Below, piece by piece: positions 8,534 through 27,214 of a stretch of 64,000 nucleotides of DNA. Position numbers and translations under genes: made by a program. The notes beneath the pieces are model-generated. The model made no database searches. It was not told the DNA's origin and was given only the letters and a program-made list of their open reading frames with translations. Numbering within the stretch: the stretch's first letter is position 1; each line of letters opens with the position of its first letter. The stretch is from Dictyostelium discoideum. Lineage: Eukaryota. The stretch covers positions 2,272,001-2,336,000 of the forward strand of contig CM000152.2 of assembly GCA_000004695.1 (NCBI GenBank). Reading direction: 5' to 3'.

Positions 8534-11500
8534 TTACAACTGCTCGTCATTACCGTTTGGGGTGTTGAAAGATGAATTATTAGGTGATTCGAAATCATTA
8601 TTAGAATATTCAGAAGGTGAATTTGAGTTTGAATTATTTGAATTTTGGCGAGAATCGCTGATCATTGTTGATAATTTGGTACTGTTTCTATTTTTTGAAC
8701 CTCCGCTATTTGTTGGACTATTATCTGAACTTGTATTAATATTTCTAGCACGTTGTTCAAAACAATACAAAATACTAAATCCAGGAACGATTTCAGTGAT
8801 TATTAAACCAATGAAACTGAATATCATTGAATTTACATTTCCTGCTACTAAAATCAATACAAATACACAATGTAATAAAAATCCAATCGAACATGCAACA
8901 GTGAGTGTAAAAATTTTTCTTTGATGATTTGATTTTGAGCCCACTTTAATATTGGTTGAACGCATAACAATGAATAAACGGCCACCCAAGTAAATGAATG
9001 CTGCACCCATAATTAATGAAATTAATGCTTGAATCACCGCGTAAACAATACTAACTACACGTTGTGGTGTTGAACTTTCCACTGGAATTATAATACGCGA
9101 ACCACAATCATTACTTGGATCGGTATTGGTATATTGGAAAACTAATACAATGGCAATGAATAATAGGTAGAGGAATGCATTGATTACAAATACAATTGTA
9201 AATAATCTCTTTGATAAATTCTCAGCAGATTTATTCTTTTTCAATACCAAGAATACAATGACATACCAAAGTACTAAAAGAATATTAAATGCTGTAAAGT
9301 AAATAAATGTTGGTAATACCACTAGAATGTAATCGGCGATTGGACTATCAGATAAATTACCACTTGGCATAATAAAGAAATAAATGGCTCTAATTGTGAT
9401 AAATAGTGTTACGACACCAATTAAAAGATGGGTTAGTTGGAAATTTCTTTTTTCTGAAACAAACTGAGTTCTAACAATAAGACATAATTCAAATAAACCC
9501 CAAATTGAGACTACTGAAAAGAGAGCACCCAATGTATACATTAATGCTCTTGATGTTGAGTCGAATGCTTGTTTACTTTCATTTTCCCATTCATCCATTC
9601 GATTAATTGGGAAATAAATTGGATTACCACCTTCAATGGTAACAATTGAACATAACATTAAAACTTCATCTTTACCTGCAGTTACACTATCCTTTGAAAT
9701 TTGAGTGAATATTTTATTTGATTGAATTGGAGTTGGTGTTGTTGATTCACCATCGATTTGAACTGCAAAATCTAAAATTGGATATTTTGTGCTAGATAGA
9801 GATATTTTCAAACAAATGGTTGCTTCATTTATACCATCTTGTGATTTAATCATAATACCATCTCCTAATAATGTACCAATGATTGCATCATTAGAGTTTT
9901 TAACACCATATTTATCAGCTTTCTTATAGGATACGAAATTTGATGCTAATGATTCTTTTTGTGCTGATGTATAGATTTCTCTTGAAATTTGTGAAATTGA
10001 TAAAGATTGACAACTTTGAGAGATTGAATCATTTGAAAATTCAATTTTACCATAATCGAATGAAAATGATGAATTTACACCTGCGCATGGTTTAGTTTGA
10101 CCTAATAATGGTGTTGATGCAGTGAAACATTGTGAGCCACCTTTACCTGAACAACTACATGTAATTGAGTTCAAATTTGATTGTAATCTTTCCATACGAC
10201 AATATGCTTCTGAACGGAATAAATCTGCAACTTGAGTTTTTGCTGCTTTTGTAACACTCTTGTAGAATAGTTGATAATTGAATACACTATCGATATCATT
10301 TGGAATGAATGATTTCGCAGTATTCCAAACAATTGGTTTATAAACACCTGGTAACCATGTAGCTGCTTTCCATTGGAATTTATTTGTCCATTTATTGAAT
10401 GAGTCCATACAACCTTCACATAAATCTTGATCCATTTCATTGAATTGGTAGTTGAATGGTAAATTATTAACTGTTATAGTGGATTCTAAAATTTTACAAC
10501 CCATTTGTGATGTACATGAACTTTGATTTCTTGCCGGTATCCACCATACACCACCATCATCTTCACAACTAACTTTACTCAAGTAGTCCAATCCTAATGG
10601 ATAACAACCATTTGGTGAATCTTGTTGGGCATATGGTTCACAACTTATGCCACTAAATTTACCATGTGGGAATAAACATTTACCATATCCATCAGGATAA
10701 TTATAATTTCTTGTAGTGGCTTGATTGAAATAAAATTCATCAGAACAAATACCTGCTGTTAAACATTCTTGTTCAGTTTGACACTCAATTGGTTTTAATG
10801 AGCATAAACTTTGTTGAGCATCTGGACCAATGCATTCACCTTCAAGTTTTGTTGAACAATCTATCCATGTATAACCTGAACCAGCAGTAATACATTGTTG
10901 TTCATCTGTTGCAGATTTTAATATACAAACTTTTGCTTCGGTTGACCATTCAGTTGTACCTACAGGATTATCTAATGCTGCACAATTTGTGCTATTCATT
11001 CCGGTTTGTAAAATTGCACAATAATCATCTTGATTATTTGCTAAACTTGAAGAGCATTCATAACCACATGGTACTGAACATTTACCTTTAGAATTACAAT
11101 TACTTTCGCTTGTTGCTGTTAAATCATATTCACCATTTGGTAAAAGACAAATTTGATTTTGAGTTTGACATGATGTTTGATCTGTAAATTCAGTAGCTAC
11201 ATGACATTGAGTATCTTCATTTGTACAAACACCACAAAAATCTTTTAAAACACAAGCATCTTCACATGACTCTTCAATACCATTTTCAGTATATGTATTA
11301 TCACTGCATGACAAGTATGGACAAATACCCCAAGAAGTACAATTATCAAAATGTGATACTAATCTAAAATCCCAATATAAAAACATACTATCCAAACAAG
11401 TATCATGATGAGAAAGGCATGAACCATCCAAACATCCATTTGTTGAATAACATTGTTCTTTGCTGTATGATACTCTTGACCCCCATGTATATGTAGAACG

Positions 11501-24400: not shown

Positions 24401-27214
24401 ATACATTCTTGATGTTGAACTGCATAACAATCATCTACTTGGAATCCTGGTGACCAAATAAATGTTGAACGATCTTTAATATAATTATGACCAATACAAT
24501 CCTCTCTTATATGGTTATTGAAAACTTTAGTTACAACATCATCATTTACTGTTGTTGAACCTTCTAACAATGAGAATAATGTACCAGGTGATAAGTGTAA
24601 TAGTACACATTTTACATATTCAAAATCGATTGTATCAAAATCTGGTATACAAGTTCTTGAGTATAAATTACATTCACCATTTCCATATCCATTACAATCT
24701 GTATCATTTGAACAAAATGGTGATACTAATTTACTCTTGCAATCTCTTAAAACTGTAATTGATGTTAATTCTAATTTTTTAGGTTCAATTGATGGCACAG
24801 CACAATCATCAATACCAGTTAACGAACTACCATAATCTGATAATACTGATGAGGTACATTCTTGACTTGAACATTGTTCACTTACTAAACTTTTATTCAC
24901 CGATATGAATTGTGTAACATTTTTTAAAACAATTGATGGATTACAACATTGATAATATCTAGCCAATTCTGAACAACATGGGTCAGTTTTATATTCTGGA
25001 TCAGTGACGAAATGTGAACAATATTTTGTTGATATATTCTTTGCAACAGTTTCCATATGTAATAATGATAATGCTTTATTACTACAACCTATCCATGCAT
25101 CACTAATAGTCAATGAATCTAAACTATATCTATAATTATTTAATTCATCAATATCCGAAACATTAAATAGTGTTGTCTCTGTTTTTTCAATAAGTCCCAA
25201 AACTTTTTCAAATTCTGTATTATTACATTCTAAATTTTTTTCTTTAAAATTAATAGTTAAATCAATTGGCTAAAGTAATAATAATAATAATAATAAAAAA
25301 TAAATGTTAATAATTTTTTAAAAAATAAATGTTAATAATTTTTTAAAAAATAAAAATAAAAATTTAATATTATTATTTACATTATTATTTTCATCAAAAA
25401 TAGTTCCAAGGAATTGTAAAGATGATTCTAAAATTGTTGAATAATTTTCAATAAAATCACCACCAACTGAAAGAATAAATGCAACTTGAAATGATTTTGG
25501 TTTAAAAGTATTTAATGGTGGCTGTAAAATATTTAAATAGTTAAATGAAGTTGAATCAATGAAACGAGCAGATACTGGCCATAATGGATTTATATCGTAT
25601 TGTGGATAAATTGCGGTGAATGTAGTGCTAGTTGTAAAAGCTGCTGAATCATAATCAATAGTTGGCAAACGTAAACGTACACTATTAACCAATGCTAAAG
25701 TACCAGGTTGTGTTGATAATGATCCCAATGAATATCTATACCTATTACCTTGATTTGTAATTGAAAATGAATAATCTGTTTCATAAACTGTATATACACT
25801 TAAATAAATAATTAATGGTGTTGTACTATCAACTGGTTCCAAATATAATACCATATTATTTTCATCTAAAAAAAAAATAAAAAATAAAAAATAAAAAAAC
25901 AATTAATAAATTAATAAATTAATAAATTAATAAAATTATTATTATTTAAATACGTTACAATCTTGTTCTAATTTCCAAGTTGTATAACTGGCATTTGGAA
26001 ATATATATTCGTTTGAAATAAATATTGAAGTACTTTGAAAAATTGAAGGGAAATTAAAATAATAGAAACCAGCATTTTCAACTTGAAATGAATAATGTTG
26101 ATATTGATTATCTGTTAAGAAACCATAGACAACTTGACCAATAGTTACACATATATGGTCAGATGATACTGGTTGACAATTTGAAGTGTCGACAGGTTCA
26201 CTTGGTACATCATTTGAACGAATGATCATTTTAAAAGTATAATTGTTACTAAGTGGTTGAATTCTTAAAAAGTAAGTGTCACGACTCCAAGAATCTGTGA
26301 ATGTAAAATGTTCAGTTCTATTCCAATTATCTGATGGACATATATTGAATAACATATTTCTTTCAGGTGAAAAACCAGATGAATAACGTGAATAGCTTGA
26401 TGATGGTGTTTTACCATTAATATAAACTTGACCATATCCAGAGATTGGTAAAACTTTTAAAAATAAACCTTTACAACCAAATGAATCGGCTTTCATTCTA
26501 AAAAATAGATCCTCTGATGTAGTATAGATTTTTTCTGTATCCGATTCAATAGTTGTCCATTCGCCATTACAAATATTCTCAGTGACATTACATGCATTTG
26601 TACAACTTGGATCACGGATTTTCGGACATTCGTTCATATCTGTATAATCACATGTACAATCTATATTCTTATCACTTGGAATATCTGTACAATTATAGTT
26701 TGGACATCCCAATGAATCATATAAATAAATATCTTGATCAAATTCAACATCAATCAATGCATATGATAAATCGGTTCCCAATAAGTTAACATCTTTTTTT
26801 ATAATAGTTGACGATTTAACTTCAATACCTATTTACAATTATTTTAATTAAAAAAAAAAAAAAAAAAAAAAAAAAAAAAAAAAAAAAAAAAAAAAATTGG
26901 TATTTTTAGAATTTTTGATTTTCACGTTTTACAAAAAAAAAAAATAGTGCGAAAAAAAAAAACAGTGCGAAAAAAAAACAGTTCGAATTGTTTTTTTTTT
27001 TTTTTTTTCAGATTCCGTGTGGTAAAATAATTATAATTGTTTATTTTTTGATCTTCGTAAAAATAAAAAAAAATAAAAATAAAACAAAAAAGATAAAAAT
27101 AAAAAAAATAATAATAATGAAAAAAGAAATTAATTTACCTCTGATTTTATTTATAAAAAAAAGATGGAACGAAAATAAGAAAATGTAAAATATTACAATA
27201 TTTTTAACATTCAT
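21478..27214 (-). CDS. Giant Cys-rich-ectodomain 7TM receptor-like protein, paralog 3, about 1740 aa: join(27214..27139,26828..25959,25865..25381,25269..21478)
   Basis: Exon 1 ATG(27214)..MNVKNIVIFYIFLFSFHLFFINKIR(G), donor G|GTAAAT (27138). Acceptor aaatag|GT at 26829/26828 gives (G)IEVKSSTIIKKDVNLLGTDLSYALIDVEFDQDIYLYD.. Exon 2 ends ..WKLEQD T|GTAACG (25958-25953, non-canonical 4th-6th positions; the least certain junction). Acceptor ttttag|ATGAAAAT at 25866/25865 gives (Y)ENNMVLYLEPVDSTT.. Exon 3 ends ..TIFDENNN|GTAAAT (25380). Acceptor ctttag|CCAATTG at 25270/25269 gives PIDLTINFKEKNLECNNTEF..TTLFNVSD.. Seven TM helices and an S/N-rich tail as in paralogs 1 and 2. Intron 1 is unusually long (310 bp). 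Confidence 0.68.

Follow-up and report, generated by a model that had tools for sequence, protein, structure and literature searches.

The stretch of DNA analysed here, hereafter the window, comprises 64,000 nucleotides (nt) of Dictyostelium discoideum AX4 DNA with an overall G+C content of about 22%. On its minus strand, between positions 8534 and 27214, three paralogous genes lie head to tail, here called A, B and C, which encode proteins of 1739, 1775 and 1740 amino acids (aa), respectively, and which are D. discoideum AX4 chromosome 3 genes. The encoded proteins share one domain order: signal peptide, hairpin and eight-Cys loop, two PPC-like beta-sandwiches, alpha/beta linker, Cys-rich core, juxtamembrane domain, seven-helix bundle and tail (Table 1). 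The gene models were built by reading the minus strand of this interval and joining open frames at GT..AG sites, and they reproduce both the triplet arrangement and the identical exon plan with a signal-peptide micro-exon that had been proposed in a first-pass annotation of the same DNA. All three genes have four exons, intron phases of 1/1/0 and GT..AG boundaries in nine of nine introns, and their frames are intact over 5.2-5.3 kb. The introns contain 3-14% G+C, compared with 21-33% in gene-spanning 2-kb windows, which is the usual contrast for the Dictyostelium genome. Each protein contains exactly 79 Cys, 77 of them common to all three, and pairwise protein identity between the paralogs is 67-75%, so that a chance pattern can be dismissed. 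The introns and non-coding flanks of the three genes have only low-complexity AT-rich matches in common. Intron 3 of A (12330-12430) and of B (18800-18960), though not that of C, is filled with long ATT/TTA trinucleotide runs, so that a portion of this intron in A aligns inversely with the end of gene B, which is rich in (AAT)n.

The triplet genes are already in the databases with a Pfam label, UniProt having taken the protein names from the PF06454 domain, and the sequence itself is not undiscovered. The suspicion that the full-length proteins might be unannotated or mis-modelled did not hold for A and B, whose spliced translations are identical to XP_641707.1 and XP_641708.1, respectively, but it was justified for C, which the AX4 annotation divides into two genes, DDB_G0279579 (320 aa) and DDB_G0279577 (1421 aa). 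Residues 1-315 of DDB_G0279579 equal the merged C model, after which the annotated protein reads through into intron 2 (CNVFK, stop), while DDB_G0279577 is the merged model from Met320 on. Intron 2 of C has counterparts in A and B that agree with it in position and phase, the orthologs of C in Dictyostelium firmibasis and D. citrinum are continuous across the junction (..KLEQDYENNMVLYL..), and a newer D. discoideum gene model matches residues 26-1737 of C at 100%, unbroken. Because of this agreement we adopt the merged gene; judged by these comparisons, DDB_G0279579 and DDB_G0279577 are one gene that is mis-modelled in AX4. The opposite error occurs in newer automatic strain annotations, in which all three genes are fused into products of 5,182-5,288 aa (P0010, P0011 and P0012, from D. 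discoideum and two D. cf. discoideum). The two entries should be merged in the AX4 reference, and the three-gene fusions in the newer annotations should be split. The cluster contains a single Logan fragment, P0018, which is the unspliced genomic open reading frame (ORF) of B exon 2 and has no value as transcript evidence.

The C-terminal region of all three paralogs matches the Pfam family PF06454 (THH1/TOM1/TOM3) with scores of 42-52 bits, compared with a gathering score of 25 bits. The alignment spans profile positions 3-258 of 273, and 10 of 28 diverse relatives also match the family (best E-value 1.8e-30). PF06454 was the sole Pfam family found for the transmembrane (TM) region at E<=1, with no match to Dicty_CAR, 7tm_3, Frizzled, 7tm_2 or 7tm_1, the families that mark the known Dictyostelium GPCR classes (cAR/Crl, GABA-B-like Grl, frizzled-like Fsl/Fsc, secretin-like Lrl and rhodopsin-like). 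The bundle, which the first-pass annotation could place in no receptor class, thus belongs to a known seven-transmembrane (7TM) family, one without a known ligand class. The accompanying label of an unrecognised family has to be given up for the 7TM domain and stands for the ectodomain, which has neither a Pfam model nor a solved relative at the sequence level.

Hydropathy analysis identified seven hydrophobic segments (residues 1403-1664 in A), and AlphaFold2 placed seven long helices and a short eighth in a low-confidence model of exon 4. Lys and Arg residues number 17 in the predicted inside loops and the start of the tail versus 2 in the outside loops, which together with the signal peptide indicates an N-out/C-in topology. 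By sequence-based prediction, each paralog is an N-out/C-in seven-helix membrane protein. Several polar or charged residues inside the helices are conserved across the family (R1455, E1654, P1657, Y1571), and the 75-residue tail of A contains 18 Ser and 18 Asn. Foldseek matches of the bundle were mostly G-protein-coupled receptors (GPCRs), none of them at E<=0.001, and a seven-helix model tends to match GPCRs; the bundle is modelled as being of GPCR type, within a family of unproven receptor status.

Ahead of TM1 lie about 1,400 residues, with an ectodomain of about 1,380 aa. The features read from the raw sequence at this end of the proteins, namely a signal peptide, a Cys-knot-like start, two beta-rich modules and a huge Cys-rich region, were all recovered here, as were the seven helices and the Ser/Asn-rich tail at the other. 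A hydropathy peak of 1.8-2.6 is present at the N-terminus of all three proteins, and the starting motif reads CPNYNCTDIPSD..CTCDYTDMNECPKIR in A and C and, as a variant, CPNFACKDIPVN..CTCDYTDVNECPKIR in B. The AlphaFold2 model of the N-terminal 520 residues (predicted local distance difference test, pLDDT, 76; predicted template modelling score, pTM, 0.76) comprises a three-stranded hairpin region, a loop with eight Cys, two beta-sandwiches and an alpha/beta linker, and in this predicted structure the tip modules have the PPC beta-sandwich fold. Positions 230-351 of the ectodomain profile match proteins with PF04151 PPC repeats, P0100 (E 3.7e-30) and P0116 (E 2.6e-27); the link to PPC at the sequence level is indirect only, because it runs through the ectodomain profile to these repeat proteins. 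P0100 (2516 aa) and P0116 (1160 aa) are built from many PPC (PF04151)/UPF0669-like repeats, and the profile matched them 14 and 9 times, respectively, where the second tip module lies.

The ectodomain contains 73-74 Cys and 16-19 N-glycosylation sequons. Pfam returned no family for it, tiles of 300 aa from the core remained blank even at E<=10, and profile searches against PDB sequences found no ectodomain relative. Internal repeats were not detected in the core when its tiles were compared with one another by hhalign (best probability 11%). More than 40 Cys of the core are invariant in comparison with the single-pass relatives described below, and the juxtamembrane domain, scored with our own domain hidden Markov model (HMM), is kept in 94 of the sequences screened. 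A reading of the juxtamembrane domain as a GAIN/GPS unit was rejected: Pfam gave no GPS or GAIN match, and the 200 residues before TM1 in A, B and C contain no GPS-type H-[LMIV]-[ST] or CxC cleavage motif.

Whereas word-index homolog searches gave 8-9 close relatives only, an exhaustive profile search with residues 21-1215 as the query returned 561 cluster representatives at E<=1e-3, 84 of them at E<=1e-30. Named members come from Dictyostelium purpureum, which has at least seven, Heterostelium, Acytostelium, Tieghemostelium, Cavenderia and the protosteloid amoeba Planoprotostelium, and full-length homologs occur in every major group of Dictyostelia. Representatives were scored with our own domain HMMs and a hydropathy scan. 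The core HMM matches 147 of the sequences screened, and the core is present in 142 of the 147 representatives P0019-P0165. Among these 142 core carriers, 80 have a TOM-type bundle, 7 more have at least five helices, and in 37 the core is followed by no more than one or two hydrophobic segments. Part of this last group probably consists of 7TM proteins that are truncated, but many of its members are complete type I proteins, about 1,270 aa long, which have a signal peptide and a single helix at the C-terminal end. Both the core and the juxtamembrane domain are found in single-pass proteins (e.g. P0087, P0103, P0104, P0119, P0124 and P0146), which also keep the last strand before the membrane, and some single-pass relatives contain extra modules, namely FG-GAP (P0125) and teneurin-type EGF (P0115, P0119). 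The single-pass relatives stem from metagenome and Logan contigs, and their amino-acid composition is unlike that of Dictyostelium. One further architecture is seen in P0123 (Planoprotostelium fungivorum PRP79187.1, 2331 aa), where a protein kinase domain (aa 198-451) stands ahead of the core and a TOM-type bundle; this is either a genuine kinase-receptor fusion or a fused annotation.

Divergence between the paralogs is unevenly distributed along the proteins. The tip region (aa 100-480) is 35-55% identical compared with 55-99% for exon 4, and the synonymous divergence (dS) is 0.6-1.3 over most of the tip region and about 0 in patches of exon 4. The ratio of nonsynonymous to synonymous divergence (dN/dS) ranges from 0.23 to 0.33 in the 7TM domain and from 0.44 to 0.73 in the ectodomain and remains below 1 throughout, indicating purifying selection on all three copies. 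Hypervariable tip evolution of the allorecognition type, suspected from the 35-55% paralog identity, was rejected, the tips of orthologs being as conserved as the other domains: compared one domain at a time, tip included, each paralog type shows 81-100% conservation in D. cf. discoideum, D. citrinum, D. dimigraforme and D. firmibasis, and the 7TM domain is 92-99% identical between orthologs. The distinct and conserved tips of the three copies suggest three specificities.

The longest exact match between two genes links A and C (Table 1), and A and B share an exact match of 191 nt (9222-9412 and 15697-15887) in genes that are otherwise 81-84% identical. Moreover, tracts such as aa 863-937 and 1231-1305 show 100% identity between A and C even though both proteins depart there from their respective orthologs, a pattern that points to recent gene conversion within the array. 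Exon 4 has thus, on the pattern of these tracts, been homogenised by gene conversion.

Table 1 Positions in the window of the three genes, their domains and neighbouring features.
Feature	Gene	Position	Strand	Details
Gene A	DDB_G0279573 (Q54WL0)	8534..14201	-	join(14201..14141, 13921..13037, 12937..12435, 12304..8534), 1739 aa
Gene B	DDB_G0279575 (Q54WK9)	14922..20826	-	join(20826..20766, 20514..19600, 19486..18996, 18782..14922), 1775 aa
Gene C	merged model	21478..27214	-	join(27214..27139, 26828..25959, 25865..25381, 25269..21478), 1740 aa
Intron 2, AX4 split point	C	25866..25958	-	93 nt, unusual donor GTAACG, acceptor TTTTAG, 5% G+C
Signal peptide	A	14142..14201	-	aa 1-20, exon 1; equivalents at 20767-20826 (B) and 27140-27214 (C)
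PPC-like beta-sandwich module 1	A	13287..13640	-	about aa 115-232
PPC-like beta-sandwich module 2	A	12819..13232	-	about aa 251-355, spans intron 2; AlphaFold2 model
Cys-rich conserved core	A	10109..12304	-	aa 484-1215, about 730 aa
Juxtamembrane domain, beta-rich	A	9560..10108	-	aa 1216-1398; strand-rich in low-confidence model
Seven-helix domain, PF06454	A	8756..9556	-	aa 1400-1666; 47 bits, E 3e-12
Seven-helix domain, PF06454	B	15231..16085	-	52 bits, E 8.9e-14
Seven-helix domain, PF06454	C	21703..22512	-	41.6 bits, E 1.3e-10
Cytoplasmic tail, S/N-rich, and stop codon	A	8534..8758	-	aa 1666-1739
Gene-conversion tract	A and C	9810..10236 (A), 22787-23213 (C)	-	427 nt identical, longest exact match; dS about 0; A and C both differ here from their orthologs; overall DNA identity 81%
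RasGEF ORF		81-1871		
RhoGAP ORF		1972-4485		
GRAM ORF		4676-5554		
WKF domain ORF		35458-36309		
JmjC and zinc finger ORF		36619-39426		
Aldehyde dehydrogenase ORF		46513-47847		
tRNA-Cys		58676-58749		
Polyubiquitin, five repeats		59609-60754		

The neighbours of the triplet within 81-8186 and 30296-60754 are ordinary eukaryotic genes that offer no functional hint. Long stretches of 40001-44000 and 48001-58000 have a G+C content of 15-17% and few ORFs and are probably intergenic or repeat-rich DNA.

Plant TOM1-type proteins are about 290 aa long and consist of the 7TM domain alone. The bundle of the triplet is homologous by sequence to plant TOM1/TOM3/THH1 (PF06454, formerly DUF1084) and shares with it the seven helices and the predicted N-out orientation, yet with about 1,400 residues before TM1 the triplet proteins are TOM1-like by domain and not in length, being members of the family with another architecture. 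Plant TOM1 is reported to be a tonoplast protein and is known only as a host factor of tobamovirus replication (PMC10576174), whereas the triplet proteins have a signal peptide and a giant ectodomain, the 7TM domain making up the C-terminal 15% of 1,740 aa. The tonoplast or endomembrane location and the binding of TOM2A, ARL8 or the tobamovirus replicase are documented from experiments in plants only (PMC10576174; PMC3234234). The TOM1 family was once held to be plant-specific (PMC2530877), and our search of the PF06454/DUF1084 literature found plants only.

In overall design the triplet resembles adhesion GPCRs (class B2; e.g. latrophilin, CD97 and Dictyostelium LrlA), which likewise combine a signal peptide and a long modular adhesive ectodomain with a beta-rich domain next to TM1, a seven-helix bundle, which in the triplet is modelled as GPCR-type, and a Ser-rich tail. 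However, the triplet has no 7tm_2, GAIN or GPS match by Pfam and neither H-L-T/S nor CxC before TM1, and the likeness is one of design, not descent. The PPC/collagen-binding domains (PF04151) of the clostridial collagenases ColG and ColH show 12-16% identity, and the context of the triplet is eukaryotic and membrane-bound. SID1, SIDT1 and SIDT2 also belong to the systems nearest to the triplet. Within the same organism, SadA is a multi-pass substrate-adhesion protein with nine predicted helices and EGF repeats. Its Cys-rich extracellular adhesion region makes it comparable to the triplet by functional analogy only.

An adhesion or recognition role, as the first-pass annotation had proposed, is the most reasonable reading of this architecture. 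With moderate confidence, we interpret the triplet as recognition or adhesion 7TM receptors of the binding type at the cell surface, with three tip specificities. The paralog-specific PPC-like tip would bind a macromolecular ligand, for instance prey, matrix or a glycoprotein or glycan of the cell surface; the core, made rigid by its disulfide bonds, would hold the tip off the membrane; and the juxtamembrane domain would link mechanical load or ligand occupancy of the tip with the 7TM bundle and the Ser-rich tail. Gene conversion keeps the stalks and 7TM domains of the three copies alike, and the whole would be akin to an adhesion-type 7TM receptor assembled from unrelated parts. Ligand binding, surface location and signalling of the triplet proteins are all presumed in this scheme. 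An extracellular adhesion context for the core is suggested by the single-pass type I proteins, which have the same Cys skeleton and in some cases FG-GAP or teneurin-type EGF modules.

Several observations weigh against this interpretation. The PF04151 HMM was not matched by the N-terminal exons of A, B or C in Pfam at E<=1, and the AlphaFold2 model of aa 484-1683 (12 sequences) was poor, with a mean pLDDT of 49; since the model of Cys-rich core and 7TM domain is of such low confidence, the coupling of ectodomain and bundle is conjectural. The same ectodomain works with a single-pass anchor, and the 7TM domain may therefore be dispensable for function. In the literature searched by gene and UniProt identifiers, the triplet genes are not mentioned. 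The sole characterised members of the family, plant TOM1 and TOM3, are described as tonoplast proteins (PMC10576174), TOM1 was alone among the Arabidopsis candidates in not binding the G-alpha subunit GPA1 (PMC2530877), and in a 2026 preprint the TOM proteins do not fall within the canonical GPCR clades (10.64898/2026.03.02.708220).

The main rival to a surface receptor, drawn by analogy with TOM1, is an endolysosomal or vacuolar location. The proteins would then reside in a lysosomal, phagosomal or contractile-vacuole membrane, where the lumenal ectodomain would bind the content or protect against it and the 7TM domain would recruit cytosolic partners such as an ARL8-type GTPase. We regard this as unlikely, but as the strongest of the alternatives. 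It accords with the tonoplast location of the characterised PF06454 members and with the reported co-purification of TOM1 and the small GTPase ARL8 with the 180K replication protein of tomato mosaic virus (PMC3234234), and a Cys- and glycan-rich domain would fit the demands of a protease-rich lumen. The predicted topology is the same for a lumen and the cell exterior and does not discriminate between the two. However, the combination of ectodomain relatives with FG-GAP and EGF modules and single-pass anchors is typical of surface adhesion proteins, and plant TOM1 lacks an ectodomain, so that its location may not transfer to the triplet.

The occurrence of core and juxtamembrane domain in one-helix proteins (e.g. 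P0087, P0103, P0104, P0124 and P0146) raises a second alternative, to which we assign a somewhat lower probability still: the ectodomain could do all the work, in cell-substrate or cell-cell adhesion, and the 7TM domain could be a stable, non-signalling anchor that is exchangeable for a single helix. Such a passive role fits the negative outcome for TOM1 in the sole published assay of G-alpha binding (PMC2530877). Nevertheless, the 7TM domain is the most constrained part of the proteins, both in dN/dS and in ortholog identity, and the residues within its helices (R1455, E1654, P1657, Y1571) are kept across the family, which is more than an inert anchor needs; the Ser-rich tail is conserved as well. 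Finally, it is very unlikely that the frames are remnants of decaying duplicates or annotation artefacts whose joined models are not expressed proteins, as the division of C in AX4, its unusual intron 2 donor GTAACG and the unspliced state of the sole Logan fragment P0018 might suggest, given the three intact frames, the 77 shared Cys, dN/dS below 1 throughout, the orthologs of each copy in D. citrinum, D. dimigraforme, D. firmibasis and D. cf. discoideum and the full-length homologs across all groups of Dictyostelia.

Beyond the receptor reading of the triplet itself, we put forward a broader proposal that we consider possible rather than probable. The core and juxtamembrane domain (about 900 aa) may constitute an undescribed, ancient extracellular module of microbial eukaryotes that acquired one of two membrane attachments, a single-pass anchor or a TOM1-type bundle, and the 7TM version may represent a separate adhesion-type receptor class whose assembly was independent of that of adhesion GPCRs in animals. 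Neither the joining of PPC-like modules with an unmodelled Cys-rich core and a TOM-type bundle nor the single-pass sister architecture appears to have been described. If the proposal is true, the orphan TOM1/THH1 family would gain its first evidence of ancestral sensing of extracellular ligands, and the plant proteins would be survivors that lack the ectodomain.

Almost all that is known of the TOM1/THH1 family concerns its part in the susceptibility of plants to viruses, and its GPCR status is disputed. The existence of a large amoebozoan and protist branch whose bundle carries a giant modular ectodomain speaks for a capacity of the family to act as receptor or as adhesion anchor, and either role can be tested in Dictyostelium, a tractable organism. 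The phylogeny-wide dictyostelid GPCR census of 2023 selected proteins by InterPro GPCR signatures and covers families 1, 2, 3, 5 and 6, and TOM1/THH1 is unmentioned there. The proteins described here thus stand outside the published dictyostelid GPCR catalogues and form a family of unexplored candidate surface receptors, with possible roles in adhesion, prey recognition and multicellular development.

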